Virus record (IMG/VR): IMGVR_UViG_3300046665_000589
Span: 29,508 to 93,507 of that record
Direction: 5' to 3' (one strand)
DNA: 64,000 nt
Source: a virus
The notes under the pieces were generated by a model. The model worked only from the letters and a program-made list of their open reading frames with translations. It ran no database searches and was not told the DNA's origin. A program made the translations under genes and the position numbers. Shown one piece after another: positions 14,391 through 61,352 of the stretch. Positions within the stretch are counted from its first letter, which is position 1. Each line of letters starts with the position of its first letter.

Positions 14391-15469
14391 ATGCATCACC
14401 TGCTGTCGGAGCGCCTGCCGCGCCCCATGCCCACCGGCGAGAACCACCTGACCCCGCTCGACCAATTCACCATCACCGCAGGCACCACGCCGTTCGCACT
14501 GTGCAAGCAGCACGGCCACTACGACATCGTCATCAACCTTGAGCTCGAGGTGGGCTATTTCCGCCACCAGAAGGGCCTGTACGAGGGCCGCTTCTGGCTG
14601 GCCGGGCGCACCTTCCTGGCAGCCGAGCACCTGCTGCCGCGCGACGTGCAGAGCGGCCTGGCCAAGCTCGGCTACGAGGTGGCGTGATGAGCGCCGCCCG
14701 ACTTTTCCGCGGCGAGGCCCGCGAAGACATCCTCTTCCACGATGTCGCCGTCTGCCACTATTTCAGGTTCCGCGGCCACGTGTATGAGAAAGTCAGCACC
14801 GACAAGGGTCGCCCTTGGGGTTGCGGCGAGCGCGAAATTCGCACGTTTGCAGCCGACGACATCGTGCAGGTGGCGAAATGAACCCCGACTATGCCAACCT
14901 GTTTCTGCTGACCGACGCGCTCAAGCGTCTGTTCGCAGCCGAGTTCAAGGGTGAAGGCAGCCAGCGCCGCGCGATCGCCGAGTACGACTCGACCCGCGCG
15001 CGCGTCCAGAAGGTCAACCCGGAAGCCTTCACCGCGTTCTGCCAAGCCTTTATGGTGCGGCCGGACGCCACCGGCGCTGACATCCTCAAGGGAGGCTCGT
15101 GATGTTGGCCTTCGTTAGTCCTGGCAGGTGGCGCATCCCTGCGTGGAAGGGCGCCTTCGCCGTGCGCGTGCACCGCCGCCCAGCCGCATGGGAATTGCAG
15201 GACGCGCAAGGTCGCCTCACCTTCGGTGACGGCTTCGAGTCGCTCGCGCACCTGCGCGCCTGGCTGAAGGAGGCAGCATGAAACGCGCCGCCATCGCCTT
15301 CAAGCACATCGGCATTGGCCAGTGCTTCACCTGCGAGCTCCAGGTCTGGACCAAGCTCAACGAGCAGGAGGCCAGCTCGGACACCTGCCGCGCCACCTTC
15401 CCGCCCGACCACCCGGTTACTCAGGGCACCACCGTGCCGTCACCACGGAAGCCCCAGACCTCGCGGTAG
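14391..15469 (+). other. Five small coupled hypothetical CDSs (14391-14687, 14684-14881, 14878-15102, 15099-15281, 15278-15469)
   Basis: ATGA/GTGA overlaps and RBS motifs. Confidence 0.65.
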
Positions 15470-16137
15470 GTAGGCTGGAACACGAAGCGCACCGCGCCTG
15501 CCTTCCACTTGCGCAGGCGCTGCAGATAATCATCGGCCACGTGGCAGGCCACTGGCACGCTGACCCACGCGCCCTCGTACCAGTGCCACTCCATGCCCTC
15601 TACCGGGGCCGGGCGCGGCGGCAACCCCGACGCCTTGCGGCTGGCGCTGCGCGGCCTGCGCACCTTCGTCAGCACAGGCGGAGGCACCTCGACGCCGCGG
15701 CGCAGCTCGCGCTCTTCGGCCTCGATCGCCAGCACGTGGTGCAGGTCCTGCATGTAGTAGTCGCGCGCGTGCGCCTGCCAGTTGAGCAGGCACTGCTCCG
15801 GCGTGCTAAAGCCCATCTTCTCCAGCGGGTGGTAGAACTTGCCGCCGCGCGCGGTCTCGCGGTAGCGCAGCCGCTTATGGCGGGCCGGCATCAGGTTGTC
15901 GATCGAGCAGTTGAAAGGGTTGCCGTCCAGCTGCACCAGCGGGAACTTCGGCCAGTTGCCGTAGTGCAGGCACCAGGCGATATCCGGCGCCGCAAGCCGC
16001 TCGCCGTTGATCGTCGCCCACAAGCGGCCGGCGGTCACATAGGACAATTCTTGGTAGGACTTGTCCGCAAGGATGCGGTAAATCGACTTCGAGCCCGTAA
16101 AGTAGTGCGGAACATGCTCAGCAGGTAGGTTATACAT
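15421..16137 (-). CDS. HNH_3-like protein with a degenerate active site
   Basis: APDIAWCLHYGNWPKFPLVQLDGNPFNCSIDNL matches the HRLAW..HYG.WP...IDHIDGNP.NN.I.NL pattern, but the catalytic DH reads VQ. Confidence 0.65.
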   Translation of the reverse strand: MYNLPAEHVPHYFTGSKSIYRILADKSYQELSYVTAGRLWATINGERLAAPDIAWCLHYGNWPKFPLVQLDGNPFNCSIDNLMPARHKRLRYRETARGGKFYHPLEKMGFSTPEQCLLNWQAHARDYYMQDLHHVLAIEAEERELRRGVEVPPPVLTKVRRPRSASRKASGLPPRPAPVEGMEWHWYEGAWVSVPVACHVADDYLQRLRKWKAGAVRFVFQPTYREVWGFRGDGTVVP

Positions 16138-16139
16138 GG

Positions 16140-16690
16140 CAGTCTTATATAAGAGTGGAAGAAATACCACAGTACGAAAGTGGTAAGTCGTATTGTACTC
16201 CGCAAGCCTCTAGAGGGCAAGTAAGACTGTATGTAAGTCAGTATTCTACTAACTATGGTCGCATTACCCTCCCGTCAAAATTTGCCAATGGGTCATTTTC
16301 GTTTTTTCGTGATTTTTGGCCTTTTTCCGTTTTTTACCAACTTATTTTGCCCGTTTTTGGCCCACTTTTTGGCCGTACTTGCGTTTTGGCTTGCTTATAG
16401 CGTTTTTAAAAATCCCTCTCAGTTTGGTATAAAAGCCACGTAAGTGTGTGCAATGTCAGTTCAGTTATATTGACAGGGTCCGAACTGCTCAAACTTACGT
16501 GCGAGCTTATATAACTTACTTTGTCAAACTTTCGCACTTTTTGCCGGAGTTAGAAAAACAACTTGTATTGCCTTGCAAAAATGTTGTCAAAAAGTCTTGC
16601 ATTATCACCCAACATTTCGGCCTCTTACAGCACCCGCTTAAGTGCTGTTATTTTATTCCCAGCTACTTTGGTATTTTTTTGGAGCTCTTA
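16140..16690. other. AT-rich non-coding tract with phased T-tracts and an inverted repeat (16437-16501); candidate origin unwinding region
   Basis: Sharp GC drop; repeated TTTT(T)G(G/C)CC; CACGTAAGTgTGtGCA...TGCtCAaACTTACGTG. Confidence 0.55.
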
Positions 16691-16691
16691 C

Positions 16692-16898
16692 ATGTTGAAA
16701 AATTTGTTCCGTCCGCCTTCTCCGGAGGCTGTTCGCCACGAAATGATTGCCGAAACAGCAAGACAGCTACTGCACGCCGAGGGACGCTTGCGCCAGGCCC
16801 AGGCCGACCGCGACACCTATGACCAGCTGCTGACCCACCTGAAAAGCCTTAATTTTCAAGGACTTAGCTCGGAGGCCGCTGTCAATGACAGTCAATGA
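16692..16898 (+). CDS. Small coiled-coil hypothetical protein
   Basis: GGAG RBS; MLKNLFRPPSPEAVRHEMIAETARQLL; ends inside the repeat array. Confidence 0.55.
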   Translation: MLKNLFRPPSPEAVRHEMIAETARQLLHAEGRLRQAQADRDTYDQLLTHLKSLNFQGLSSEAAVNDSQ

Positions 16899-17226
16899 CA
16901 GTCAGCGATAGTCAATTCGAGTCAATGACAGTCAATACCCATCAGCCCGTCATGGGTATTGACTGTCACTGACATTGACTCGAATTGACAGTCAGTGACT
17001 GTCACTGACTCGGATTGACAGTCACTGACTACGATTGACAGCGATTGACAGCGATTGACAGCGATTGACAGAGTCATTGACAGCAATTGACAGCGATTGA
17101 CAGCGATTGACAGAGTCATTGACTGTCACTGACTACAATTGACAGCGATTGACAGCGATTGACAGCGTCATTGACTGTCAGTGACTGTCAATCGTAGTCA
17201 ATGACATTGACAGTCATTGACAGTCA
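16880..17226. repeat. 10-bp-periodic TGAC(A/T)GTCA / ATTGACAGCG array (iteron/centromere-like)
   Basis: About 15 TTGACA on the plus strand, mostly 10 bp apart; left arm inverted around ~16948. Confidence 0.9.
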
Positions 17227-17275
17227 GTTCTGCCAAGCTGTACGATGTTTGCTTTCCCTTCCTGAGGATTCTGCA

Positions 17276-17971
17276 ATGAGCATTGCACCTGGTACCGTCT
17301 TCGGCCCTTTCACCGTGGTCGGCGACGCCCCGGCCAAGTCTGGCCACCTGTACACCAGCATCACCTGCACCTGCGGCGCGCCACCCCGCGCTGTGCGTGC
17401 CTCGTGGCTGCGTAAGGGCGATATCACCTGCCCTTCGTGCGGAGCCCGTGCCCAGAGCCTCGCCCCGGCGCAGGCCGGCCAAGACCTTGGGCTACTGGTC
17501 GAGCATCTTGCCCCACTGACCAAACAGCTTGCCGAGATGGGCAAACAGCTGGTCATCTTGACCGAGCTCGTACGCTCGCTCCAGCCCCAGCCCAAGGCTC
17601 CTGGCCTGAAAAACCACAGGTTCGAACTCGACCCGACCGCCGTCACCGCAGCCGGCGCCGCGGCCCGCCTTGCCGCGCTGCCCGCCAACGCCCCGATCAC
17701 CAAGGACAGCCTGCTGGCCGGGTGCAGCAGCAAGGAGGAAGCGCGCAAAGCGCTGGACGACAACCAGCAACGCGCCCTGGAGCTCGCCGCGCTGCCGTTC
17801 GCCGAGCGCACGCCGGCCCTGAAGGAAGAGCTGCGCCAGCGCATGGTGGCCAATGCCGAGCGCCTGCACGGCCGCCTGCCCACCGACCCCGGCTACACCG
17901 ACATCGCCACCCACAACCGCACCTTGCATCGGGCCTTCGCCGACTGGGACCGCGACACCTCGAAGGATTAG
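17276..17971 (+). CDS. Protein with the N-terminal Zn module of HNH/AP2 homing endonucleases and a helical C-terminus
   Basis: GTVFGPFTVV...CTCG...VRASWLRKG..TCPSC; no nuclease motif; promoter TTGACA(17217)-N18-TACGAT uses the last array repeat. Confidence 0.65.
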   Translation: MSIAPGTVFGPFTVVGDAPAKSGHLYTSITCTCGAPPRAVRASWLRKGDITCPSCGARAQSLAPAQAGQDLGLLVEHLAPLTKQLAEMGKQLVILTELVRSLQPQPKAPGLKNHRFELDPTAVTAAGAAARLAALPANAPITKDSLLAGCSSKEEARKALDDNQQRALELAALPFAERTPALKEELRQRMVANAERLHGRLPTDPGYTDIATHNRTLHRAFADWDRDTSKD

Positions 17972-17980
17972 GGAGACATC

Positions 17981-19030
17981 ATGGGTATCCAGCAAATCAT
18001 CGAAGAATGGTTCAACGACCTGGGCATCGACATCAGCCTGCGCGACTCGCAGCGCCTGGCGGACGCCATCACGAAGGCCCTGCCGCCGGCCCCTCTCACC
18101 TTGCACTGCCCGGCCTGTCACACCTTGCACGTGGACGCGGGCGAGTGGGCCACGCGGCCGCACAAGACGCACCAGTGCCAGAACTGCCAGCACGAATGGC
18201 GACCGTACGACTACCCGACTGTGGGTGTAGCGCCGTCAGCGCTGCCCGCCGAGGCGGCCTTCGACGTTATCGTTATTGCGGGCCAAGCGTACAGCGAGAG
18301 GCTTGCAGACCATGCGTATGTGAGGGGTGAGAGCGTCGCTGCTAGCGCACCGCAAGCATGCACCTATCCGAACTGCACCTGCATTGGTGGAGGCGTGTTT
18401 AAGTCGTGCGTGAAGGCCAGCGCAACGCAAGCGCCTGCCGCCGAGAGCGTCGATTGGATGGCGTTCAGAAAAATACTGCGCGACTACGCCGACGAGAAAA
18501 ACATGGATGTCGGCTCAGGCGATGTGATCCGGTTCGTCGAATCCCTGATCGACGCGGCGGTAGCACAGGTCGCGCCTGCGGTGCGCGAAGCCCCGGGCTA
18601 TGGCCACCCCCTGCCGCTTAAGCGGGAGACAGACAAGCGCGAGGTGGTTCAAATTTGCGATGCTGACGGCCAGACGATATTCGAACTGAACACGCACACA
18701 CAGCGCTCGCTGGACGACAAAGCAGGACTGGCGGAAGAACGCAAGGCTGCCGAAGAATTTGCCGATTTCGTCGTTCAATCGGTCAACCGCGCCGCGCCTG
18801 CGTTGCAAGACGATAGCTCAATCCTTGCGCTGTCACTGGATGTTATGACACGCGCGCTTGACACCTTGGTAGGTGCTTGCATGGACGAGAACGGCAAGCC
18901 GAAAGCACCTGAGCGGCGAGAGCTAATGCAGGCACGCGGGTATCTGCCTGCCAAGTGCCGCCATGCGTTCGTGCGCACCACCAGCACCCCGGCAGACGAC
19001 AGCCAGCCCGCTGTGGGAGGTGCGGAATGA
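17981..19030 (+). CDS. Mosaic Ead/Ea22-like hypothetical protein with Zn-finger modules
   Basis: CPAC..H...H..CQNC; Ala/Pro linkers. Confidence 0.6.
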   Translation: MGIQQIIEEWFNDLGIDISLRDSQRLADAITKALPPAPLTLHCPACHTLHVDAGEWATRPHKTHQCQNCQHEWRPYDYPTVGVAPSALPAEAAFDVIVIAGQAYSERLADHAYVRGESVAASAPQACTYPNCTCIGGGVFKSCVKASATQAPAAESVDWMAFRKILRDYADEKNMDVGSGDVIRFVESLIDAAVAQVAPAVREAPGYGHPLPLKRETDKREVVQICDADGQTIFELNTHTQRSLDDKAGLAEERKAAEEFADFVVQSVNRAAPALQDDSSILALSLDVMTRALDTLVGACMDENGKPKAPERRELMQARGYLPAKCRHAFVRTTSTPADDSQPAVGGAE

Positions 19031-19317
19031 CCACGAAACCGAGCGACACCAACATCCTTGGCCTTCTGAGCAGCCGACGCGGCATGGTGATGCCGACTTA
19101 CTTCATCAAGAACCTGCTGCGCGAACACTCCCCTGGGCTGCAAACGCCGTGGGTTCTTCGTCGGCTGAAAGCGCTGGAAAAAGCTGGGTACGTTCAGCGC
19201 GCGCCGACTACCTACGCGACCATGATCTGCTGGGAGCTGGTCGCACAACTCCCCACCCAGCAGGCAGACGACAGCCAGGCAGCACCACCAGCACCGACCA
19301 ACAAGGATAAGCCATGA
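19027..19317 (+). CDS. Winged-helix-like hypothetical protein
   Basis: TPWVLRRLKALEKAGYVQR. Confidence 0.55.
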   Translation: MTTKPSDTNILGLLSSRRGMVMPTYFIKNLLREHSPGLQTPWVLRRLKALEKAGYVQRAPTTYATMICWELVAQLPTQQADDSQAAPPAPTNKDKP

Positions 19318-20756
19318 CCGACAAGACCACCGCAGGCATCGACCTAGACAAGCTGCAGCGCTTCAACATGCGAGGCGGCCTGATGAATCCCGAGCCGTGG
19401 GGCCTGTACGTGCGCTATGAAGATGTTGCCGCTCTCATCCAGCAAGCCGCGCCCGATGAGCGCCGCAACATCGCCGAGGTCAAGCGCAGCAGCGACATGG
19501 GCCTGTCGATCCGATTCCTGTCGGCTCGCGCATGCTCTGCGTTTGAACGCTTTCTCGCCGAGCCTGCGGCCACCCCGCAGGCCAGTGCAATCCCGGCGCA
19601 TGCGTGCGAAATAGGCCTTGCATCGGCGCCGGTCGTGTACTCCAAGAACGGCGGCCCCGACGAGGCCACCCAGCAAGCCGGGGCGGCTGTCGTAAGCGAA
19701 GCCTTCCTGACAGGTGCGCACGCCGAGTTCAGCGAAGCCCTGCCGCCTGGCAGCCTGACGAGTTTAGGCCACCGCCACGTCGTTAATGCGCTTCGCTCCG
19801 CGATCAGGTCCTACATCGAAGTCTCCCGCAGTTCATCCCTTGTGGCCACCACGGCAAGCGCGAGCGACGAGACCATTACCGTGCAGGAGGCATGGGAGGC
19901 GGCCGGCGGCAACCCCGGCATCAAGGCGACGAAGCAGGAATTGCTGGACGCCCTGCGCGTCATGGATGAAGCCGTCGATGAGTGCGACGATAAGCACGGA
20001 AAGGCCCCCCAGCAGGCAGGGGAGGCTGTCGACCACAGCACCATCTGCCACGACTATAGCGACCCCACGCTGGCCTGCTCATCCTGCGGTCTGATGATGG
20101 GCGAATCACGCACTCTCGGCCATATCAAGTTAGGCATCCTCGCCGTATCCCCTGCGGCCACCACGGCAAGCGCGAGCGATCGTGAGAAGTTCGACGCAGC
20201 GATAGCCCGTGCAGACCGGCCCGGCGCTGAAATTCTTGCCGATGCTATGCGCCGCGCCCCAGCAACCAGCCGTAAGGCTACACCGCTGGGGATTTCGGAT
20301 GCAATGGTCGATGCATACCTTGCTGCACAGCGTGAGCAAGTGGAGCGGAAGGATAAGCGCCCGTTCGGTGTAGTCGACCCGCGCGCCGCATGTCGTGCAG
20401 GTCTCCGCGCCGCCCTCGCCCAGCAGGGAGCAGCACCCGGTCGCTTGATTGTCCAGCGGTACACCAACGATGGCGAAGGCAACATGCTGGAGAACCCTGA
20501 GGGGGTATGGTGCTACTACCAAGATGCCGTCGCCCAGCAGGGCGCAGCACAGGCAGCGGAGGGGGATGCCGATCTGCTGAATTTCATGGACGGGCCTGAT
20601 TTCGTAAGCCTGCATCAATATGTCAGCAGTGACAAACTTTTTATCGAGGTGCAACGCGAGAACCCGGACAGCAACCACCGAGCCGACACGGCACGCGCGG
20701 CACTTGCCGCCGCCATTGCCGCCGCACCTGCAAGCCAGAAAGGAGACTGCAAATGA
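19314..20756 (+). CDS. Mosaic multi-module early protein (Ead/Ea22-like)
   Basis: Repeated linkers ATTASASD x2, QQAG.AV x2, AQQGAA x2; duplicated M...G.(Y/W).(R/Y)Y.D module. Confidence 0.65.
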   Translation: MTDKTTAGIDLDKLQRFNMRGGLMNPEPWGLYVRYEDVAALIQQAAPDERRNIAEVKRSSDMGLSIRFLSARACSAFERFLAEPAATPQASAIPAHACEIGLASAPVVYSKNGGPDEATQQAGAAVVSEAFLTGAHAEFSEALPPGSLTSLGHRHVVNALRSAIRSYIEVSRSSSLVATTASASDETITVQEAWEAAGGNPGIKATKQELLDALRVMDEAVDECDDKHGKAPQQAGEAVDHSTICHDYSDPTLACSSCGLMMGESRTLGHIKLGILAVSPAATTASASDREKFDAAIARADRPGAEILADAMRRAPATSRKATPLGISDAMVDAYLAAQREQVERKDKRPFGVVDPRAACRAGLRAALAQQGAAPGRLIVQRYTNDGEGNMLENPEGVWCYYQDAVAQQGAAQAAEGDADLLNFMDGPDFVSLHQYVSSDKLFIEVQRENPDSNHRADTARAALAAAIAAAPASQKGDCK

Positions 20757-49187: not shown

Positions 49188-50030
49188 ATGTTCAAAAGTA
49201 CAACGATCATCGGCTGCAGCCCGAAGGCTACGTTCAGCGCCATCCCTGCCGACCAGGAATTCATGCCGCCGCTCGATCTCGAGGCCCAGCGCGGCGGCTG
49301 GTCGCCGGTGCGCGACGACGAGTACGTCTACATCAACAACGGCCAGATCCTGCTCCACTACACGATCGAGAAGAAGCACGTGCCGGCCGGCGCCGTGAAG
49401 CTGGTGGCCGCGGCCAAGCAGGCCGAGCAGGCAGAGCAGCAGGGCTTCCCGATGGGCAAGAAGGCGAAGAAGGAGCTGATCGAGCGGGTGCGCGACGAGC
49501 TGCTGCCGCGGGCGCTGTCTTCGCGCAGCACGACGAAAGTCTGGATCGACCCCAAGGCAGGACGCATCGTGATCGACTCGTGCGCCAACTCGGTGGTCGA
49601 ATCGGTCCAGCGCGCGCTGATCAAGACCTTCGGCAACATCGGCCTGCAGGACGTGGCCTGGCCGCGCGCCAAGGTGATGACCGAGTGGATGGCCGAGCGC
49701 CCGATTGGCTTTTCGCTGGATGACCAGGTGCACCTGCAGTACCCGGGCGAGCGGGGCAAGGTGGTGAAATTCGCCAACGCTGATGTCACCGGCGGCGATG
49801 TCTGGACCCACGTGAAGGCTGGCGCCTACGTGCAGTCGCTGGCCATGACCTACGACTCGCGCATCTCGTTCGTCATGACCGACGGCGCCCAGCTGCGCCG
49901 CATTAAGGCGCTCGACATCCTGAAGGAGACCGCCGACGCGGCCAAGGACGTCGACCGCTTCGACAACGACTTCGTGCTGATGACGGGCGAGCTGACCCGC
50001 CTGTTCGACGCGCTGGCGGCGGAGGCGTGA
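49188..50030 (+). CDS. rdgC: Recombination-associated protein RdgC
   Basis: GWSP, EKKHVPA, KKAKKELIERVRDELLPRA, FDNDFVLMTGEL. Confidence 0.9.
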   Translation: MFKSTTIIGCSPKATFSAIPADQEFMPPLDLEAQRGGWSPVRDDEYVYINNGQILLHYTIEKKHVPAGAVKLVAAAKQAEQAEQQGFPMGKKAKKELIERVRDELLPRALSSRSTTKVWIDPKAGRIVIDSCANSVVESVQRALIKTFGNIGLQDVAWPRAKVMTEWMAERPIGFSLDDQVHLQYPGERGKVVKFANADVTGGDVWTHVKAGAYVQSLAMTYDSRISFVMTDGAQLRRIKALDILKETADAAKDVDRFDNDFVLMTGELTRLFDALAAEA

Positions 50031-50371
50031 TGGAAGGCACCAACAACCTCATCGGCCGGCTGCGTAACGGGCATGGCCTGACCTTCGACGAAATGCGCGC
50101 GGTACGCCTTGCCGCGGCGGAGCAGCTGGAAGCGTACCAGCAGGCGCTGCAAAGCCTGCGCGAATACGCCCAAGCGCAGGGCATCGACACGGCCTCCCAT
50201 CCGATGGGCAAGCCGTTGCCGGAGGTGCGCGCCGAGCTGCTCAAGCGCGTCGACGGTCTGGCAAAGTTCGCCTACACCTACTGGACCGAGTGCGACGTCG
50301 GCCCGGAGCGCACCTGGGGCGCCAACCTGTACGAGATCATCCGTACGGCACCGCGCGAGGCGCGCGAATGA
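50027..50371 (+). CDS. Hypothetical protein
   Basis: Coupled to rdgC and the methyltransferase. Confidence 0.6.
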   Translation: MMEGTNNLIGRLRNGHGLTFDEMRAVRLAAAEQLEAYQQALQSLREYAQAQGIDTASHPMGKPLPEVRAELLKRVDGLAKFAYTYWTECDVGPERTWGANLYEIIRTAPREARE

Positions 50372-51288
50372 GGGCCGTCGACCTGTTTGCCGGCGCCGGC
50401 GGCTTCTCGACCGGCGCCAAGATGGCCGGCTGCGAAGTGGTGTGGGCAGCCAACCACTGGCCTACCGCGGTGGAAGTCCATGCGAAGAACCACCCCGACA
50501 CGCTGCACGCCTGTCAGGACCTGCACCAGGCGAACTGGGCGGAGGTGCCGGATCACGACCTGCTGCTGGCCTCGCCCTGCTGCCAGGGGCACTCGAAGGC
50601 ACGCGGCAAGGCTTCAGGCAATCCGCAGCACGACGCCAGCCGCTCGACGGCCTGGGCGCCGGTGGCTGCGCTGGAGGTGCACCGCCCCAAGGTCGCGTTG
50701 ATCGAGAACGTGCCCGAGTTTCTCGAGTGGGCGCTGTACCCGGCCTGGAAGATGGCGGTCGAGGCGCTGGGCTACAGCGTGGGCGTGCACGTGGAGGACA
50801 CCGCCGACCACGGCGTGCCACAGAACCGCGAGCGCATGATCCTGGTGCTGACCAAAAGCCGCGCGCCGATCCAGCTGCGGCTGGAGAAGGAAGAGCACAT
50901 CCCGGCGTCGACCTTCGTCGACTTCGATGGCGGCAGCTGGACGCCGGTCAATAAGCCGGGCCGGGCCCAGGCGACGCTGGAGCGTATCGCCGCCGGCCGC
51001 CGCCAGTTTGGCGAGCGCTTCATCATGCCGTATTACGGCAGCGGCTCCGGCCTGACCGGCCGCAGCCTGGACCGTCCGGTGGGCACGATCACCACCAAGA
51101 ACCGCTGGGGCGTGGTGGACGGCGGCCGCATGCGCATGTTCACCGCGGCCGAGAGCCGCGCCGCGATGAGCTTCCCGGACGATTACATCCTGACCGGCGG
51201 CGTCACGCTCGACACCCACCTGCTCGGCAACGCCGTCCCTCCCAAATTCGCTCAGAAGGTGATCAACGCCTTGCGCGCCCAGCACTGA
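50368..51288 (+). CDS. C5 cytosine DNA methyltransferase (orphan)
   Basis: DLFAGAGG (I), SPCCQ (IV), ENV (VI), QNRER (VIII), GNAV (X). Confidence 0.92.
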   Translation: MRAVDLFAGAGGFSTGAKMAGCEVVWAANHWPTAVEVHAKNHPDTLHACQDLHQANWAEVPDHDLLLASPCCQGHSKARGKASGNPQHDASRSTAWAPVAALEVHRPKVALIENVPEFLEWALYPAWKMAVEALGYSVGVHVEDTADHGVPQNRERMILVLTKSRAPIQLRLEKEEHIPASTFVDFDGGSWTPVNKPGRAQATLERIAAGRRQFGERFIMPYYGSGSGLTGRSLDRPVGTITTKNRWGVVDGGRMRMFTAAESRAAMSFPDDYILTGGVTLDTHLLGNAVPPKFAQKVINALRAQH

Positions 51289-51298
51289 AAGGAACTGA

Positions 51299-52117
51299 AT
51301 GAAGACCTACGTCAACAAGAACTGCCCGTGGGAATACTTCGAGCAACCGCCGCTGAACACCAAGATACTGCTGCTGACCAAGGACAATCAGTGCGTGGTC
51401 GGCGTGTTCAAGGGTGAGCCGCTGCCGGACAACCGCACCTACAAGGCTTGGCAAGGCCTGCCTGACCGGTGCCAGGCGTTCGAGCGCCATTTGGGGTACC
51501 TGTGATGATTGCCGATCCCGATCTGGCCAAGGTGCGCGCGTTGTGTAGCCGCCTCGAGCAGCCGTTTTGGATGCCCGACCCGGACAAGTGGGTGTGGCTG
51601 CAGCCGGACGGCCGGCCGCAGGGCCCCGGCCTGGTCAGCTACGCTAGCCCCGGGCTGACCAACCTGCTGTGGCTGGCACTGGACCTGCCGGCGCCGCCGC
51701 CGGTATTCCAGATGACGGACAACCTGCTGGCCGGGCTGGTACTGCTGCTGGCTGGCTCGTCCCGGCTGGTAGGCCAGCCGCTGCTGGACATGGCGGCGCT
51801 GCACCCGCTCGACGAATTCGCGGCGCTGCTGCCGGAGGCGCGCGCGCCGGGGAGCAACTCGCTGGAGGGTGCGTACCAGGTGCTGCGACTGCTTGCGCTG
51901 CGGAGGCTGCGACATGGTTGAGACGATGACGATCTACAAGGCCTCCGCCGTCGGTCTGTCAACGGTGCTGCCGAACGTCGTGATGGCGAAGGCCTGCCAG
52001 CTGGGCATGCACCGCATGCACTTCGCCTGGCTGGAGTACCTGCTGGCTAACAGAGGGCCGCAGCTGTGTCTGCCGGCGCGCGCCGTGCGCTTCGCACTGG
52101 AGCACTGGCATGCGTAG
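51299..52117 (+). other. Hypothetical CDSs 51299-51505, ~51502-51921 and 51914-52117
   Basis: Coupled ORFs. Confidence 0.55.
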
Positions 52118-53537
52118 CCTCGACGAAGTCCTGGCCGCCCACCCGCTGCCGCATCCGCTGGGCGGCACCATGACGCTTGATCCGATGCAGGTCGAGGACA
52201 TCCTGCAGGCGGTCGAGTGGCGCCGCGCGCTGCTCGACCTGCCGGTCGGCTACGGCAAGACGGTGATCCTGACCTGCATCGCGCTGATGCTGCAGCCCGA
52301 CCTGACGATCGTGCTGGTGCCGCCGATCCTGATTCCGCAGTGGGTCGCCTGGCTCAACAGCATCCCGGGTGCCGGCCTCGCGCTGGCGTACGCCGGTAGC
52401 CCGAAGCAGCGCAAGGCCTTGCCGGTGTTCGAGGCCGACTGGCTGGTGATGAGCTACCAGGTGTTTAACAACGATATCGGCACGCTGCGCAAGCTGTGCG
52501 CCAATGCCGAGGTGCTGTTGGAGGTGGACGAGGCGCAGAACCTGAAGGGCCGCGGCGTCCTGTTCAAGAACGTGCGCGACTTCGCGATGGGGCGCCCGCT
52601 GATGCAGGCCTCCGGCACCACGATGAGCAAGGTGGGCGACGCCTACGCCTACATCAAGCTCAACACGCCGGAGGTGTACGGCACCTACTACCAGTTCGAG
52701 AATATCCACGTCAAGGAGCGCGACTTCTTCAAGCAGCCGATCGAGTGGCACAATCTCGACCTGCTGCAGCAGAACTTCAGCCTGCGCCGGATCCACCGCA
52801 CCAAGGAAGAGGTGCACGCGGCGCTGCCCAAGGCCAACGTGATCCCGATCTACTACGACCTGGACAAGGAGCACATGGCGCTGTATCGGCGGCTGATGGA
52901 AGAGCAGCTGCTGCTGCTGGACGACGGCGGCAAGATCGACGCCACCACCGCCACCCGACTGTACCATGCGGCGCAGCAGATCGTGATCGACTACGGCTAC
53001 TTCGCCGGGGACCCGGACAAGCGTTCGGCGATTTTTGACCTGGTCGACGGCGTGGCCGACGAGATCGGCCTGGGCGAGGACAGTGACGAGCCGCGCAGCA
53101 AGCTGATTCTGTGGACCACCCATCGCAGCGTGTCGCGCCTGATCCACACCCACATGGAGACCCGGCTTGCCAAGGTCGGTCGGCGCGCGGTGGCGGCGTT
53201 CTCGGAAGTCGACTCGAACAAGTCGATCAAGGCCTTCATGGAAGATCCGTTGACGGTCGAGCTGACCGCCCAGCCCGGGTCGGGCGGCGCCGGCCGGAAC
53301 CCGCAGTACCTGTGCTGGGAGTGCGGCTATATCCAGATCCCGACCACCACGATCCCGTTCGTGCAGTCGTCGGGCCGGATTGATCGCAAGGGGCAGCGCT
53401 ACAACCCAAACATCCGGCTGTTCATCGCGCGCGGCACGATCCAGGAGCAGCTGCTGCGCAACCTGCTCAGCAATGACGAACTCGTGCGGAAAGCCTCCGG
53501 ATCGAGACAAGGCATCAAGGACTTGATTTTCCCGTAG
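52110..53537 (+). CDS. SF2/SNF2-like helicase
   Basis: GYGKT, DEAQ, SGT, QSSGRIDRKGQ. Confidence 0.85.
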   Translation: MRSLDEVLAAHPLPHPLGGTMTLDPMQVEDILQAVEWRRALLDLPVGYGKTVILTCIALMLQPDLTIVLVPPILIPQWVAWLNSIPGAGLALAYAGSPKQRKALPVFEADWLVMSYQVFNNDIGTLRKLCANAEVLLEVDEAQNLKGRGVLFKNVRDFAMGRPLMQASGTTMSKVGDAYAYIKLNTPEVYGTYYQFENIHVKERDFFKQPIEWHNLDLLQQNFSLRRIHRTKEEVHAALPKANVIPIYYDLDKEHMALYRRLMEEQLLLLDDGGKIDATTATRLYHAAQQIVIDYGYFAGDPDKRSAIFDLVDGVADEIGLGEDSDEPRSKLILWTTHRSVSRLIHTHMETRLAKVGRRAVAAFSEVDSNKSIKAFMEDPLTVELTAQPGSGGAGRNPQYLCWECGYIQIPTTTIPFVQSSGRIDRKGQRYNPNIRLFIARGTIQEQLLRNLLSNDELVRKASGSRQGIKDLIFP

Positions 53538-53591
53538 GAATCGGAGGTAGAATCATTGCCTCCGGTCAGTATCCTTTAAGAAAGATAACAA

Positions 53592-54080
53592 ATGAATAAC
53601 GAAGCGCCCGACGCCCTGGTGTCGCTCCAGCGGCTGTGGAACGACCACCGGATGAGTCATTCGATCAATTGGAACCTGTTCCAGTCGTACCACCTGATGT
53701 TCGTCGAGGAGGGCACCGAGCTGGTGGTCTGGAATCACATGCCCAATGGTCCCCAGGTAGTGCAGGTGGCCAAGGTAACCAAGGTCGGCCTGTCGTTCCA
53801 TTCAGGGTTGCTTATCGGCCTGACTGATGCCGCTGGCGCCTACTACACCGTCAAGGCCTACCCGCGCGAGGCGCTGCCCGGCGTGTTCCTGTGGACCCCG
53901 GCGTTTTCCGACGTGCGCTTCGCGCCGCGCAAGTTCGCCGACCCGGACTCGCCGCGCGTGCTATCGCTGGCCCTGTGCGCCAAGATGCGCTCGCGCTTCG
54001 ACCGCCCGGTCGAGGGCCACCGCTACGTCTCGACAATGAAAGAATTCCGCGCCGTCTGGCCAACCACACCCATCCTGTAA
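53592..54080 (+). CDS. Hypothetical protein
   Basis: 162 aa between helicase and primase. Confidence 0.6.
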   Translation: MNNEAPDALVSLQRLWNDHRMSHSINWNLFQSYHLMFVEEGTELVVWNHMPNGPQVVQVAKVTKVGLSFHSGLLIGLTDAAGAYYTVKAYPREALPGVFLWTPAFSDVRFAPRKFADPDSPRVLSLALCAKMRSRFDRPVEGHRYVSTMKEFRAVWPTTPIL

Positions 54081-54088
54081 AGGCCCTC

Positions 54089-57037
54089 ATGTTCCATTAC
54101 TACCAAATTGCCGGCGGTGAAGAACAGTGGGAGCCGGTACCGGCCGGGCACCTGGACAAGATCCGCGCGCTGCAGCCGATGTTCGTCACCGTGCTGGCGG
54201 TATCGAAGCTGGTGGCCGACCTGTCGCACGAGGAGAAGCTCAAACTAGCCTACGCCGGTCCGTTCTACGTCGACTGGGACTCGAAAGACGAAGTGCTGGT
54301 GATCGAGAAGGTCAACGCCTTCCTCGACAAGCTGGTCGACCTGGGCGTGGACCTGGAGATGTGCCGCCTGTACGCCACCGGCGGGCGCGGCTATCACCTC
54401 GAGGTGCCTCAGGATCTGTTTATGGACAAGATCCCGAAGAATGGTTACATCGGGCTGCCTGCGGTGTATCGCGAGATGGCGCTCAAGTTGTGCGTCGACA
54501 CGCTCGACTTGACCGTCTATTCGTCTGGGCGCGGCCGCATGTGGCGCCAGCCCAACGTCAAGCGCACCAACGGCCGCTACAAGGTGCCGGTCACAGTGCA
54601 GGAAATGCGCGAGATGACGCCCGAGCTGAATCAGGCACTGACCAGCGCGCCACGCGACCCGCTGCCGGTGCGTTCGCCCGAGCTGTGTGTCAAGCTGTCG
54701 GTCGAGTTCTCGGCTTGCGCCCAGAAGGTCGAGGAGCTGCTCAAGAAGCGCGCCAAGTTCAAGCCCGATCCGGCGCTGCGTGAGAAGGCCACCAGCCACT
54801 CGATCCTGTACGCGATGGCCGGCATCGGCATCAAGCCGGGCGTCGGCTTTCACCAGCTGGCGCTGCAGCTGGCCAGCGCCGCGGTCACCGCCGGCTGGAC
54901 CGAGGAGCGCCTGGTCGAGGAGTGCGAGGGCCTGATCAACAACCACCAGAGCGACGGCGACCGCTACAACTCCCCAGCCAAGCGACGCGAGGAGCTGGCG
55001 CGGATGCACCGCTACGTCTCCGGCAACATCTGCTACGAGTTTTCGATCGGCGCGATCAAGGTGCTGCTCGACCACCCGGCCGTTGACCTGGACGGCATCG
55101 CCGCCTCCAAGGAAGAGGTGCAGGAGGTGATCACCGAGTCGGCCGCGCAGCGCGAGATGGAGGTCACCGGCGAGGTGCAGCAGGACGAATACCACGACGT
55201 CGCCCGCGGCATCACCCTGAACAAGCACGGCGTCTACATGGACACCGAGTTCGGCAAAAAGCGGATTTGCTCGGTGTCCTTCGCCAACGCCCGCGTGCTG
55301 ATGTCGTGCAGCGACAGCCAGATCATCGGCTACGACAGCGACATCCTCGTCAATGGCGCCCGCATCGGCAACCAGACCCTGGAGCTGGACGTGTTCTCGG
55401 GCCTGGTGCCGTTCAATCGCTTCGCCAGTAAATACGGGCACGCCTTCCAAGGCTCCGACGCCCAGGTAAGGACAGTCATGATGCGTTTTGTTGAGCAGTC
55501 GAAAAAGAACCGCAAGGTCAGTTACGTCGTCACCCGCGAAGGGCTCGACATCATCCAGATCGGTGGCCATCCGCAGGAACGGCTGCAGCTGCCGTTCATG
55601 GTGTGGGCCGACAACAACGGCGTCATGCTCGAGCCGGAGGCGGCCGCCACCGAGGTCACCCTGAAGTTCGCCGGCTTTCCGGATCCGCGCGGCGTGTTCC
55701 GCTCGGACATCGCCAAGGCGCCGCAGCTGGCCACCTGGCTGCAGGTGCCCGGCAACAAGCCCCTGCTGCGCGAAACCTTGCATAACATGTTGACCTGTCA
55801 GCGCCCCGAGGTCTTGGGCAAGCTGATCGGCTGGTACACGGCCTGCTTCTGGAAACAACTGTTCCAGAAAATGTACGGCAAGTTCCCGCTGCTGCACGTG
55901 AACGGCCCGGCCGGCTTGGGCAAGACCGAGCTCAACATCGCGCTGGCCTCGCTGTTCTTCTACCAGAACGAGGCCCGGCCCCTGAGCCCGGGATCGACCA
56001 ACTTCGCGATCGTGCAGCACCTGACCGCCTCGTCCTCGATTCCGCTGATCCTGGACGAATACAAGCCGCACGAGATGCGCAAGGAGCGCCACGACTCGCT
56101 CAAAGCCCTGTTCCGCGACGCCTACAACCAGCGCGACGTGGTGCGCGGCGGCGGCTCGCGCGACTCGGACGACTACCGTTCGCTGCAGTTCACCCAGCTG
56201 GCCGCGCCGCTGGCCTTCATCGCCGAGGCAGCCGAGGAGGAGGCGGCGGTGATGGAGCGCGTGGTGCTGGTCACGCTGGCCCGCCCGCCGCAGTCGCAGG
56301 GCGTCAAGAACTACGCGCGCTTCCAGGCCTTCCAGCGCCATCACCAGCTGCTCGGCATCCTCGGCCAGTACCTGGCCGGCGAGGTGCTCAACGAGACCAC
56401 CTTCGACAGCTTCGTGACCGACTTCGACGAGGTCTATAACGCTGCGCGCAAGCGCTTCATGCTCTCCGAAGAGAACCTTGCGGCTGGCCTGAGCGACGAG
56501 GAGCTGCTCGAGCGCCAGAACACCAAGGAGCGTCCGGTGTTCAACCACGCGGTAGCGATGTACGGGTTCCGCCAGTTCAGGAAGCTGGTGACCGCTGCGC
56601 TGGGTGCCGACGCCGAGCTGGATGATCTGATGACCGAGATGGAAGACGGCGTCTATGCTCGCCTGGCCGACCTGCACGCGGCTACCACGCCGGAATACGT
56701 CAAGGTGCTGCGTGAGATCGCGGCGATGAGCTACACGGTCGACAGCGAGCGCCCCGAGGCGATCCGGCGCGGCACCGAGTACGGTCTGGTGCATCTGGGC
56801 GCGCGCTCGTGCATCGAGATCGCGGTGCGCACCGCCTACACCCACTATCGGATGTACTGCCGCGGCGCGCAGATCAACCCGCTGTTCGGCGGCGCCGAGG
56901 CGTTCGCCCACGCGATCCAGGACAGCCCGGCCTTCATCAAGAAGGGCACCGGCGAGGTGCTGAAGATGCCGGGCGTGTACACCTTCGACGTGGAAGAACT
57001 GGCACGCCTGGGCGTTGACTTGTTTAAAAGTAATTGA
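54089..57037 (+). CDS. AEP primase-polymerase fused to a P-loop helicase
   Basis: YVDWD and TGGRGYH AEP motifs, RMWRQPN; GPAGLGKT Walker A, LILDE Walker B. Confidence 0.85.
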   Translation: MFHYYQIAGGEEQWEPVPAGHLDKIRALQPMFVTVLAVSKLVADLSHEEKLKLAYAGPFYVDWDSKDEVLVIEKVNAFLDKLVDLGVDLEMCRLYATGGRGYHLEVPQDLFMDKIPKNGYIGLPAVYREMALKLCVDTLDLTVYSSGRGRMWRQPNVKRTNGRYKVPVTVQEMREMTPELNQALTSAPRDPLPVRSPELCVKLSVEFSACAQKVEELLKKRAKFKPDPALREKATSHSILYAMAGIGIKPGVGFHQLALQLASAAVTAGWTEERLVEECEGLINNHQSDGDRYNSPAKRREELARMHRYVSGNICYEFSIGAIKVLLDHPAVDLDGIAASKEEVQEVITESAAQREMEVTGEVQQDEYHDVARGITLNKHGVYMDTEFGKKRICSVSFANARVLMSCSDSQIIGYDSDILVNGARIGNQTLELDVFSGLVPFNRFASKYGHAFQGSDAQVRTVMMRFVEQSKKNRKVSYVVTREGLDIIQIGGHPQERLQLPFMVWADNNGVMLEPEAAATEVTLKFAGFPDPRGVFRSDIAKAPQLATWLQVPGNKPLLRETLHNMLTCQRPEVLGKLIGWYTACFWKQLFQKMYGKFPLLHVNGPAGLGKTELNIALASLFFYQNEARPLSPGSTNFAIVQHLTASSSIPLILDEYKPHEMRKERHDSLKALFRDAYNQRDVVRGGGSRDSDDYRSLQFTQLAAPLAFIAEAAEEEAAVMERVVLVTLARPPQSQGVKNYARFQAFQRHHQLLGILGQYLAGEVLNETTFDSFVTDFDEVYNAARKRFMLSEENLAAGLSDEELLERQNTKERPVFNHAVAMYGFRQFRKLVTAALGADAELDDLMTEMEDGVYARLADLHAATTPEYVKVLREIAAMSYTVDSERPEAIRRGTEYGLVHLGARSCIEIAVRTAYTHYRMYCRGAQINPLFGGAEAFAHAIQDSPAFIKKGTGEVLKMPGVYTFDVEELARLGVDLFKSN

Positions 57038-57049
57038 TAAGGAGGCCAC

Positions 57050-57244
57050 ATGACCTACCTGCTGATTTTCGTGTTCATGAGCGACCCTGAGATAAGGGCG
57101 CCTCTCTCCACAGGCGTTGCGGAGTTCAACGGCCTGGAAGCATGCCTGAGCGCGGCGAAGGAGATTCGCCGTCAGGCGACTGCCACCTCCAGCGCGCTGC
57201 CGCTGGTGTTGTGCGCCGCCAAGGGCATGCCTAAAAGTAATTGA
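57050..57244 (+). CDS. Small inserted hypothetical protein flanked by 13-bp direct repeats
   Basis: TAAAAGTAATTGA at 57025-57037 and 57232-57244. Confidence 0.65.
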   Translation: MTYLLIFVFMSDPEIRAPLSTGVAEFNGLEACLSAAKEIRRQATATSSALPLVLCAAKGMPKSN

Positions 57245-57269
57245 CACTGATCAAGAAGTTTGACATACT
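57241..57269 (+). promoter_or_regulatory. Strong sigma70 promoter TTGACA-N17-CATACT
   Basis: Near consensus, extended TG, CAAGAAGTTTG spacer. Confidence 0.75.
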
Positions 57270-57275
57270 GAGTTC

Positions 57276-57311
57276 TCCCTAAGACCGGACAGGGAACAGA
57301 AAGTTCCGGTC
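57276..57311 (+). promoter_or_regulatory. 5'-leader H-type pseudoknot
   Basis: S1 TCCCT/AGGGA; S2 GACCGGA/TCCGGTC. Confidence 0.6.
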
Positions 57312-57349
57312 AAAACGATGACGATGACTTTAACTTAAAGGAAAACAAC

Positions 57350-58138
57350 ATGGCACTGAATAAACAAACCCCTGCTGCTACGACCTTCGAGGATCCGGAC
57401 AGCGACGACGTCGCCGTCGAAACCCGCCAGCCGGCGTCGGCACAGGAGCGCCTCGCTGCCGCTGCTGCCGAGCGTGCTGCAGCCTCTGCATCCCAGCAGG
57501 AATCGACCCAGACCGCAGTGGCGGCCAAGCCGGCCGGTGCCGTGGCCGTTCACCGCAAGATGGAAGACCCGTTCAAGCAGCTCGAGAACGCCTTCCCGGT
57601 CGAATGGGACACGCTGCGCAACTTGGTCATTACCCAGGGCAACGTGGTCGACAAGGACACCGACAAGCCGCTCGGCGACGAGATCGGCCTGGAGCTGCTG
57701 TCGTTCCAGAAGCAGTGGGTGGTTTCGCCTGGTGTCGATGGCGAGGCGGCCAAGGAGCACGTGCGCTACTCGGACGACGGCCAGATCACGACCAAGGGCG
57801 ACGATGTGCGCGATTACCTGCAGCACCTGAAGAACACCGGCTACCCGAAGGCCAACCTGTCCGAACGCCTGGTGATCGTCGGCTCGGTGTTCGACATCGG
57901 TGTCAAGGGCCGGAAGGACCTGAAGGACCTGCAGGACGCGCTGGTGCAGATCAACCTGCCGCCGACCTCGAAGGCGACCTTCTCGCGTTACCGCATGGAC
58001 CAGGCCTACCAGATTGGCAAGGGGCTGGCAAATGCCGATGGCGCCGACCGCATCCGCATCAACTGCAACCTGAAGAAGAACGGCGACAACACCTACACGC
58101 TGGCCAACTTCAGCCGCTACGACGCCGCCGCCGCGTAA
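57350..58138 (+). CDS. Putative single-stranded DNA-binding protein
   Basis: Own strong promoter and terminator within the replication module; beta-rich core; QINLPPTS motif. Function inferred from context. Confidence 0.5.
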   Translation: MALNKQTPAATTFEDPDSDDVAVETRQPASAQERLAAAAAERAAASASQQESTQTAVAAKPAGAVAVHRKMEDPFKQLENAFPVEWDTLRNLVITQGNVVDKDTDKPLGDEIGLELLSFQKQWVVSPGVDGEAAKEHVRYSDDGQITTKGDDVRDYLQHLKNTGYPKANLSERLVIVGSVFDIGVKGRKDLKDLQDALVQINLPPTSKATFSRYRMDQAYQIGKGLANADGADRIRINCNLKKNGDNTYTLANFSRYDAAAA

Positions 58139-58156
58139 TCCCTCCCTGCGCAGTAC

Positions 58157-58181
58157 AGAGCGACCTTCGGGTCGCTCTTTT
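58157..58181 (+). terminator. Intrinsic terminator
   Basis: AGAGCGACC-TTCG-GGTCGCTCT-TTT. Confidence 0.85.
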
Positions 58182-58196
58182 CATGGAACCTACCAC

Positions 58197-58898
58197 ATGG
58201 ACCAACAAGTACAAGAAGCCGAGCGCCCGATCGCCTGGGTGATCGCCGACACCGAGACCACCGGACTGACCGGCCCGGCCTGCGAGATCGCGCTGCACGA
58301 GATTTGCCCGGACACGCTGGACATGATCTGGGAGATCGACTCGCTGATCGACCCGGAGTGCGAGATCGAACCGGGCGCCGCTGCCATCCACGGCATCACC
58401 GACAAGATGGTGGCCGACGAGCCGACGATGGCCGAATTCGTCGAATACCGCCTGGGCGACCGCTTCGCCGGCCGCGACATCGTGCTGATCTGCCACAACG
58501 CCGTGTTCGACGTCAAGCGGCTGCACGCGATCGGCGACATCACGGCCTCGATCTGCACGCTGTTCCACGCGCGCCAGCTGATCCCCGAGGCGCCGAACCA
58601 CAAGCTGCAGACCTTGCGCGAGCACTTCGGCTTCCCGGTCAACGAGGCACACCGCGCGCTGGCCGACGTCTACACCACCAAGCGCCTGCTGCGCGAGATC
58701 CTCGGCCGCACCCACCGCGGCTTGCGCGAGTTCCTGGCGACGATGGACACCACGGTCCACAGAATGCCGTGGGGCAAGCACAAGGGTACGCTGCTGCACC
58801 AGGTGCCGCGCGACTACCTGTTGTGGCTGAAGAAGGAATGCAAGGACCTCGAGCCGAACCTGCTGAAGTCGGTCGAGAAGGCGCTGAAGGTCAAATAA
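58197..58898 (+). CDS. DEDDh 3'-5' exonuclease (ExoX-like)
   Basis: DTETTG, HNAVFD, HRALAD; C-terminal MPWGKHKG. Confidence 0.9.
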   Translation: MDQQVQEAERPIAWVIADTETTGLTGPACEIALHEICPDTLDMIWEIDSLIDPECEIEPGAAAIHGITDKMVADEPTMAEFVEYRLGDRFAGRDIVLICHNAVFDVKRLHAIGDITASICTLFHARQLIPEAPNHKLQTLREHFGFPVNEAHRALADVYTTKRLLREILGRTHRGLREFLATMDTTVHRMPWGKHKGTLLHQVPRDYLLWLKKECKDLEPNLLKSVEKALKVK

Positions 58899-58936
58899 CA
58901 ACCACAACCACAACAACCACAACCAAGAGGAACAGC

Positions 58937-59551
58937 ATGAACTTTGCAGAATACCCCGCCCTCGCGGCCCGCACCGAAAAACAGTTGCCGACCATTTTCG
59001 CCCGGCTGGAGCACGCCGCGCTCGGTATCGGCACCGAAGTCGGCGAGATCGCGACCCCGATCAAGCGCATCGCCATCTACGACAAGCAGCTGACCGACCT
59101 CGAGAAGAACGGCAAAACGCTCCTGCAGAACCTCGCCGAAGAGATCGGCGATGTGCTGTGGTACCTGGCCATCATCGACAACGTCGGCCCGCGCGACATC
59201 TTCCAGGCCGCGTCACTGCGTCCGAACCGCGCGCTGGCCGATGACCTCCAGGTCAGCGCCCTGAAGTCGACCTCGCGCCGCCTGCAGGTGTTTGCCGGTG
59301 CCATCTCGATGCAGGTCGAAGACCTGTACGTGGGCCTGTACGTGGGCGACGATCCGACGGACTCTGTCAGTGCTGACGCGCGGGGGCTGCTGCAGGAGCT
59401 GGTGAACCTGGCCTACCTCCTCGGCCTGGACATCGTCCAGATCGCAGCCGACAACATCGCCAAGCTGCGCGAACGCTTCCCTGACGCCTACAGCAACGAG
59501 GCGGCCGAGGCGCGTGCCGACAAGGGCGGCCTGGATGCGCGGAACTCGTAA
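58937..59551 (+). CDS. MazG-like nucleotide pyrophosphohydrolase
   Basis: LGIGTEVGEI...EEIGDVLWY...NIAKLRERFP. Confidence 0.85.
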   Translation: MNFAEYPALAARTEKQLPTIFARLEHAALGIGTEVGEIATPIKRIAIYDKQLTDLEKNGKTLLQNLAEEIGDVLWYLAIIDNVGPRDIFQAASLRPNRALADDLQVSALKSTSRRLQVFAGAISMQVEDLYVGLYVGDDPTDSVSADARGLLQELVNLAYLLGLDIVQIAADNIAKLRERFPDAYSNEAAEARADKGGLDARNS

Positions 59552-60616: not shown

Positions 60617-60822
60617 GGCACACCGTGCTCGAAGTGCTGATCAGTACCGGGGCGGCGTTCATCATCAGCGCGCTGCTGCAGCACTTCGTGGTCAACCCGC
60701 TCTGGCACCTGCAATCGAGTGCGAGCGACAGCATCGGCATCACGGTGTTCTTCACCGTGGTTTCGCTGGTGCGTTCGTACATTTTCAGAAGAATATTCAA
60801 CAAATTAGGGAGTAGCAAATGA
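60604..60822 (+). CDS. Small two-TM phage protein
   Basis: MQS..HTVLE...ITVFFTVVSLVRSYIFRRIFN. Confidence 0.7.
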   Translation: MQSVRHTVLEVLISTGAAFIISALLQHFVVNPLWHLQSSASDSIGITVFFTVVSLVRSYIFRRIFNKLGSSK

Positions 60823-61352
60823 TATTAGTTGGAATCACCGGCAAGGCCGGTGCCGGTAAGGACACCATTGCCGACTACCTCGAGACTGGGCATGGTTTCA
60901 TCAGGCTGTCGTTCGCCAGCACGCTCAAGGCCATGATGGCTGCCGCCGGCATGCCGGAACCGGCCCGCCGCGAGAACAAGGAGCTGCCGGTGCCGGGCTT
61001 CGGCTTCACCTGGCGCGAGGCGGCGCAACGCCTCGGCACCGAGTGGGGTCGCGGCCTGGACCAGGACATTTGGGTCAAGCTCGTGGAGCAGCGCCTGCGC
61101 ACCGAGTTCCAAGGCTCACGTGTCGTGCTGTCCGACGTGCGCTTCGAAAACGAAGCAGCGATGATCCGGCACCTGGGCGGCATCTTGCTGCATGTGGTCG
61201 GTCGGGCGGCGGACCTGGGAGCCAACGCGGCCCACGCGTCGGAGGCCGGTGTCAAGTTCTCCTTTTCCGGCGGCGACCGTTACATCGACAACAGCGGCAG
61301 ACTCACCGACACAATTTGCCGCGTGGACCGGGCACTGTGGGGTACGCGATGA
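60819..61352 (+). CDS. Deoxynucleoside monophosphate kinase
   Basis: GKAGAGKDT, QRLGTEWGR, SDVRFENE, HASE. Confidence 0.9.
   Translation: MILVGITGKAGAGKDTIADYLETGHGFIRLSFASTLKAMMAAAGMPEPARRENKELPVPGFGFTWREAAQRLGTEWGRGLDQDIWVKLVEQRLRTEFQGSRVVLSDVRFENEAAMIRHLGGILLHVVGRAADLGANAAHASEAGVKFSFSGGDRYIDNSGRLTDTICRVDRALWGTR

Follow-up and report, generated by a model that had tools for sequence, protein, structure and literature searches.

A zinc-module protein gene headed by a helically phased array of tetramer boxes: a candidate binder-and-site cassette in an uncultured, probably virulent phage

What purpose might be served by several dozen copies of a four-letter motif placed directly in front of a single phage gene, and do the repeats and the protein encoded behind them belong together? 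This question is raised by a locus in a 64,000-nucleotide stretch of viral DNA (hereafter the window), which comprises bases 29508-93507 of the 93,507-bp IMG/VR record IMGVR_UViG_3300046665_000589, rated 100% complete. Here, a divergent gene pair, consisting of a gene for an HNH_3-like protein on the minus strand (15421-16137, or up to 16170) and a gene for a protein with a zinc (Zn) module on the plus strand (17276-17971), borders ~1.1 kb of DNA that holds an AT-rich tract and a repeat array (positions are those of the window). A first-pass annotation had described this same gene pair, correctly as it turns out, and had read the whole as a candidate origin or partition module, in which two nuclease-dead relatives of homing endonucleases would have been domesticated as an initiator or a centromere-binding protein. 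Overall, our analysis confirms the observation and partly supports the interpretation.

The array (16877-17230; ~350 bp), analysed with Tandem Repeats Finder (TRF), by tetramer counts and for inverted repeats, consists of 49 TGAC/GTCA tetramer boxes, against 3.5 expected, spaced by 5 or 10 bp. It is the sole such cluster in the whole genome, and its description as a repeat array stands. The longer motif TTGACAG is present in 23 copies in the window (5.8 +/- 2.4 expected), 19 of which lie between 16470 and 17223. TRF reports periods of 10, 42 and 52 at the array, and two kinds of 10-bp unit can be told apart: ATTGACAGCG, which contains one box, and ATTGACWGTC, which contains two boxes and gives rise to the palindrome TGACWGTCA. 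The left arm (16879-16937), with 6 copies of GTCAAT, is inverted about a 22-nt palindrome, while in the right arm the repeats are ATTGACAGCG decamers and TGACWGTCA palindromes. The higher-order repeats of 42 and 52 bp exceed four or five decamers by 2 bp; as these 2 bp recur every 4-5 decamers, the phase coherence of the boxes peaks at 10.2 and not at 10.0 bp (R 0.65-0.72, the rough chance level for this number of sites being ~0.23), and the boxes thereby stay roughly on one helix face over 350 bp.

At the dyad between the two arms lies a central palindrome (16921-16973; inverted repeat I24), with 22-nt arms that are 95% complementary and a 9-nt loop, and the single-strand fold of 16875-17056 reaches -61.5 kcal/mol (z -11.7). 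This palindrome is not conserved in the related contig L005, and a cruciform as the functional core was rejected, since the L005 array is all in one orientation. Matches to Rfam within the array were microRNA hairpins below threshold, and were set aside as artefacts of the inverted repeats.

The array runs into the promoter of the gene that follows it. Among the 17 perfect -35 hexamers (TTGACA) that it includes, the one in its last full unit forms, with an 18-nt spacer and the hexamer TACGAT, a sigma-70-like promoter on the plus strand (17217-17246), which scores 10/12 and is the best plus-strand sigma-70 match between 10.5 and 30.4 kb. This fits the earlier proposal that the right-hand gene is transcribed from the last TTGACA of the array. 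The array ends 46 bp before the start of the Zn protein, which homology with its relatives places at ATG 17276 (MSIAPGT...), preceded by a GAGGA ribosome-binding site, and not at 17201 as first annotated. A box site thus overlaps the promoter of the candidate binder's own gene, as in an autoregulated repressor, and an overlap of box and -35 hexamer could also be read by eye in two relatives, L005 (TTGTCG-17-ATATAT) and L010 (TTGTCG-17-TATGCT).

The Zn protein itself (231 aa) was characterised through alignments (A2, A4 and A5), structure models and an exhaustive HMMER search. It is made up of a Zn-clasped small beta-barrel (residues 1-60), a coiled-coil helix of 35 residues (67-101), a disordered linker, and a helical C-domain (143-222) that carries the motif RTPxLKEELRxR. 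The first-pass view of a nuclease-free protein, in which a CxC...CxxC module is followed by a long helix, is thus upheld. When the module was modelled alone (residues 1-65; predicted local distance difference test score, pLDDT, 89.9), three strands and one helix were placed around four Cys, a predicted fold that is not ribbon-helix-helix, and C31, C33, C52 and C54/55 were found to be invariant or nearly so. In structure searches (Foldseek, VIA), the module resembled nothing more specific than small barrels (Tudor, chromo and SH3-like; best Z 5.2), and the whole model or the C-domain nothing more than generic helical bundles, so no function can be claimed for the modelled protein from its fold; neither Pfam nor PHROG gave an initiator match. 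The full architecture, including the C-terminal RTPxLKEELRxR motif, is found in ~15 protein clusters. The closest relative, P0002, whose contig measures 93,546 bp, shares 95% of residues 101-231 with the window protein but only 43% of residues 1-100. Such a sharp mosaic boundary would be expected if the N-terminal half carried an exchangeable specificity between near-identical phages, and suggests the swap of a specificity module.

The module (residues 1-60, encoded by 17276-17455) has no Pfam model. In an exhaustive profile search with HMMER, 2,759 representative proteins matched it at E<=1e-3, many of them carrying 3-11 tandem copies (e.g., P0007, P0013 and P0016), and the window protein shows both the family's CxC(G)...CxC/CxxC spacing and a profile match. 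A minority of the module proteins also carry HNH, HNH_3, HNH_5, Endonuclease VII or helix-turn-helix (HTH) domains, and the Atlas places residues 1-59 beside an HNH_3 cluster. The view that the module is the DNA-targeting part of homing-type nucleases, present here without the nuclease, is supported by these associations, which point to a putative DNA-binding role.

To see how far protein and array go together, we compared eight loci, namely the window, six IMG/VR contigs of 63-93 kb retrieved by a search with the HNH-like protein (L005-L010; 38-64% identity), and L039, recruited through a distant homologue of the Zn protein. All seven relatives keep the HNH-like gene. The Zn protein is encoded at the locus in the window, L005, L007, L010 and L039, and in all five a cluster of boxes lies directly upstream of its gene. 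The 49 tetramers of the window, over 350 bp, are matched in L005 by ~24 GTCG(A/C/G)C units, which follow each other in 10-11-bp steps over 300 bp and in one orientation (36 CGAC/GTCG tetramers vs 6.8 expected; phase peak at 10.6 bp, R 0.73). L007 has about nine CTGACA/TTGACA hexamers (10 vs 0.9 expected), L010 has three 26-bp palindromes of the form ACACTGTCGACAATTGTCGACAGTGT (7 vs 2.6 expected), and L039 has boxes arranged about a dyad, first TGAC and then GTCA (11 vs 1.5 expected). The box type is accordingly TGAC in the window, L007 and L039, and CGAC in L005 and L010.

The remaining three relatives are without this arrangement. No Zn protein is encoded anywhere in the complete genomes of L006 and L008, which also have no array, and L009, likewise without an array, yielded only a weak match to another Zn-module gene elsewhere in its genome. 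Being missing in 3 of the 8 phages, the cassette is dispensable. As L006, L008 and L009 still keep the HNH-like gene, together with the AT-rich tract, array and HNH-like protein do not vary together, and the idea that this protein acts at the array is not borne out. Other Zn-module genes, found in L007, L010 and L009, have no upstream arrays, which makes the pairing specific to the Zn protein family of this locus. What follows the Zn gene is different in each relative, and there is hence no conserved partner gene. Overall, the Zn protein and the boxes look like a cognate binder-plus-site cassette, optional and type-specific within the clade, with binding of the one to the other predicted. Synteny in relatives, which the first-pass annotation had named as a check, thus sustains the pairing of protein and boxes (5 of 5 loci) but not an essential origin role.

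We propose that the cassette is a self-contained, optional two-part regulatory device in the early region of a probably virulent phage, acting as a type-specific autorepressor and as a gate for rightward transcription, and we give this proposal an even chance of being right. It is put forward because the array is real and unique, because box clusters accompany the gene in all five loci with box types that differ, and because of the N-terminal swap and the promoter overlap. Coiled-coil dimers or oligomers of the Zn protein would read boxes of 4-6 bp through the Zn module and would coat one face of the 350-bp array cooperatively. The coated array would shut off the protein's own promoter, and autoregulation through the array, already suggested by the first-pass annotation, is consistent with the presence and the variable type of the upstream boxes. 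It would also form a roadblock, or gate, for rightward transcription that comes from the AT-rich early region and enters the 28-kb block of rightward genes. From one relative to the next, the N-terminal half changes along with the sequence of the boxes, so the gate would be type-specific. Towards co-infecting relatives it might then behave much like a trans-acting determinant of immunity or incompatibility, a speculation that takes the swap of the N-terminal half as its starting point.

Two groups of known systems offer partial parallels. The parH/OF region of TP228 consists of ~20 four-bp boxes, direct and inverted, upstream of the binder's operon, and is both operator and centromere; ParG coats such arrays of 4-bp boxes, which serve as its operator, and does so cooperatively, with an operator that overlaps the promoter (PMC3130281). 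The overlap is also seen at the locus described here, for which coating is proposed. Very short boxes, in mixed orientation and variable number, upstream of the operon that they belong to, are features shared with ParG-parH/OF, with omega (pSM19035) and with ParR-parC. Unlike ParG, omega and ParR, the candidate binder is a Zn-clasped beta-barrel with a coiled coil and not a ribbon-helix-helix protein; moreover, no ParA, ParF or ParM partner was recognised, the replicon is probably a virulent phage, and the boxes number 49 as against ~20. The second parallel is I-TevI, whose DNA-binding domain represses the protein's own gene from an operator that overlaps the promoter (PMC2988022). A module of homing-endonuclease origin and an operator over its own promoter are found here as well, with binding predicted, but I-TevI has kept its nuclease and a single operator, whereas at this locus there is no nuclease domain and there are up to 49 copies of the operator.

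Several points weigh against the proposal. A few sites suffice for autoregulation, and the helically phased arrays of 24-49 boxes, built independently by two lineages, hint at another or a further function. The gate assumes that rightward transcription starts upstream, and no canonical plus-strand promoter was found in the AT-rich tract by the promoter scan; internal promoters may in addition exist downstream of the array. The comparison has five loci behind it, most members of the family being known only as proteins. Lastly, no solved structure matches the Zn module well, the best Z being the 5.2 given above, and its DNA-binding role is putative.

Other explanations were weighed against the same evidence. 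The cassette could be a type-specific nucleoprotein hub, in which an origin-organising or genome-positioning filament would be built on an uncharacterised DNA-reading fold, and in which the N-terminal half would set incompatibility between co-infecting relatives; we regard this as unlikely. An outright replication origin, with the array as iterons, the AT-rich tract as unwinding element, the Zn protein as origin-binding initiator and its C-domain as recruiter of the phage helicase or primase, is in our estimate just as improbable. In lambda O with the ori iterons, and in the Rep proteins of Staphylococcus aureus pathogenicity islands (SaPI) with theirs, a DNA-binding N-terminal half that is type-specific precedes a conserved C-terminal one, and the repeats lie by an AT-rich tract. 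The Zn protein shows the same pattern of variable N-terminal and conserved C-terminal halves, and its short repeats adjoin the 550-bp AT-rich tract in the window, L005, L007 and L039. The phage also has its own helicase (52110-53537) and primase-helicase (53891-57037), both within the window, so that of the earlier statement that no Rep or ParAB is encoded there, the absence of ParA and ParB holds for the whole genome, while replication genes are present. Unlike lambda O and SaPI Rep, however, the cassette is dispensable among close relatives, being absent from three phages that keep the tract; the protein has no initiator similarity, and its sites are not within the gene. Those of L010, a set of three palindromic operators, are located 0.9 kb and two genes away from the tract. 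No DnaA box (<=1 mismatch) and no IHF consensus occurs in 15400-17300, and the GC skew, which had been suggested as a check, follows the direction of transcription, is uninformative, and is featureless at the array. If there is any origin in this region, the conserved AT-rich tract is a better candidate for it than the array.

A small functional operator enlarged by neutral minisatellite growth, in which only the promoter-proximal boxes matter and the rest stem from slippage or unequal crossing-over, is a quite unlikely explanation. A recent duplication of blocks is indicated by the 85% match of the 42- and 52-bp higher-order repeats, and L007, L010 and L039 manage with 7-11 boxes. On the other hand, large arrays arose in two lineages, the window and L005, with different boxes, and both hold a phase near 10.5 bp, the window by means of a 2-bp insertion every 4-5 units.

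We consider it very unlikely that the array is a centromere-like site, which the Zn protein would coat in the manner of ParR, ParG or omega so as to tether or position phage genomes. This idea draws on an architecture closest to that of parH/OF of TP228 (PMC3130281), on a box number and orientation that vary between relatives, and on the position of the short repeats directly upstream of the gene for the predicted binder in 5 of 5 loci. Against it, there is no ParA, ParB or tubulin gene in the whole genome (PF01656 and PF00091 were searched), no tyrosine or serine recombinase, integrase or resolvase gene in the genome, and no relative of the Zn protein or prophage copy in 185,579 bacterial species genomes (one genome per species); nor does the predicted fold correspond to ribbon-helix-helix, and the ever-changing downstream genes leave no conserved partner. 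The origin or centromere function put forward in the first-pass annotation is thus disfavoured by the dispensability of the cassette, the lack of a ParA- or tubulin-type motor gene in the genome and of a conserved partner gene, and the lack of DnaA and IHF sites at the locus.

Least probable of all is a host-factor sink, in which the -35 hexamers would titrate sigma-70 region 4, or CTGTCAA direct repeats would mimic OmpR/PhoB-type sites. In its favour, TTGACA is the -35 consensus, and runs of 3-6 TTGACAG spaced by 10 bp precede genes in 17 unrelated contigs of viral origin. Against it, the arrays found at this place in L005 and L010 are built on GTCGNC, a motif unlike a -35 hexamer; the type of box varies with the phage protein; and the period is 10 as against 11 for Pho boxes. 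These 17 IMG/VR contigs (L022-L038) have their TTGACAG units at an exact 10-bp pitch just upstream of genes, where a rough estimate of chance occurrence is <1. In L025, L031 and L038 the gene downstream of the units begins with MTVLSRTEYAASKGWSRQYVGKLAKQGRL and looks like that of an HTH or small-terminase protein. No open reading frame with the Zn module was found near the units in any of the 17, and we regard them as unrelated systems for that reason. A packaging site is likewise unlikely, as the cassette is optional and lies 6-7 kb from the gene of the large terminase subunit (TerL).

The HNH_3-like protein on the other side of the locus (238 aa, minus strand; ATG at 16137, with an open reading frame extending to GTG 16170) had been described as an HNH_3-type protein that has lost its catalytic residue. 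Its homologues, 36-64% identical in alignment A3, read ...PLVQLDGNP... where the His motif is expected, and in the column that we take, from the HNH_3 family consensus, to be that of the catalytic His, all eight have Q, or T/I (LVQLDGNP, IVQLSEDP, LTILDGDP, ITQLNGDP). The loss of the His is thus corroborated, but the assignment to HNH_3 stays below threshold: the Pfam HNH_3 model (PF13392) scores 20.3 bits against a gathering cut-off of 24.8 (E 4.4e-4), and only 2 of 7 homologues match it at E<0.01. The protein matches phrog_99 at E 7.7e-6, its Atlas feature score to HNH_3 clusters is 0.92, and a profile search against PDB gave no match. Random decay, which the annotation had allowed for, is not supported, because the protein is constrained in all eight phages with the His missing throughout (40 invariant columns in the seven aligned homologues). 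In L039, the homologue (L039:2416-3144) lies directly beside an intact HNH_3-type gene (L039:1899-2471, minus strand) with a canonical ...VNHKDFDKANNHVNNLEWVTPKEN... motif; an hhalign comparison of A3 with this neighbour gave a probability of 0.4%.

Between the HNH-like gene and the array, the AT-rich intergenic tract (16138-16691) reaches a GC minimum of 0.36, compared with ~0.65 genome-wide, and is the largest AT-rich island of the 93.5-kb genome. A leftward promoter-like site is located at 16220-16192. The tract, 500-600 bp long in the relatives and directly upstream of the HNH-like gene, keeps its position in all seven of them, and the tracts have sequence patches in common (alignment A1). 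Phased T-runs, with 4-6 T every 9-12 bp on the plus strand, extend over 16296-16407 and suggest that the DNA is intrinsically curved, and L005 and L039 have T-runs of a similar kind. The ~1.1 kb between the divergent genes had been called mostly non-coding, which is true of the tract and the array but overlooks a conserved gene for a 68-aa coiled-coil protein (16692-16898, plus strand). This gene is the first of the rightward operon, and its last 20 bases overlap the array. Positional homologues of this protein, with 21-32% identity and a common N-terminal pattern M-x-K..F-PP, are found in L039, L006, L009 and L010; their homology rests on position and multiple alignment, as PHROG gave no match and BLASTP against the 156-aa protein of L010 was empty. 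The two genes that follow the Zn gene (17981-20756) encode a 349-aa protein with a CPxC...CxxC ribbon and a 480-aa protein, neither of which has a homologue in any of the related loci compared. The early region, as judged from these comparisons, is highly mosaic.

The locus is part of a genome of ~65% GC. The ends of the record overlap by ~155 bp (G000 1-170 vs 93350-93507, with one or two mismatches), and as its first ~155 bases recur at its end, the assembly behind the 'linear' record is either closed or terminally redundant. Genes for terminase, portal, protease and major head proteins occupy the minus strand at 3.4-10 kb of the window, followed by a long plus-strand block of small genes (11.6-45.3 kb) and by a replication and nucleotide module (49188-63997), which encodes RdgC, a C5 cytosine methylase, the superfamily (SF) helicase, the primase-helicase (1048 aa), an RNase T-like exonuclease, a deoxynucleoside monophosphate (dNMP) kinase, and a protein starting with 5'-3' exonuclease domains. 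Searches of 50,697 GenBank phages with the DNA of 15000-19100, and with the Zn protein, P0012 and P0093, gave no match, and the best likeness noted for TerL was 31% identity to Vibrio phage SHOU24; by sequence, then, there is no close cultured phage. Because of this, and of the lack of recombinase, ParA, ParB and tubulin genes and of bacterial-genome relatives, we read the source as an uncultured and probably virulent phage.

At this locus, a phage with neither lysogeny nor partition genes carries an operator-like array that is both very large and helically phased. The Zn module that is predicted to read it belongs to a family of at least 2,759 protein clusters that extends over several kinds of HNH-family nuclease and yet has no Pfam model. 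As nature provides five pairs of protein and site with two box types, TGAC and CGAC, the DNA-reading rule of this module is directly testable. The question that the finding raises for the biology of the phage is what advantage a lytic virus would draw from having 350 bp of protein-coated DNA in front of its early genes.

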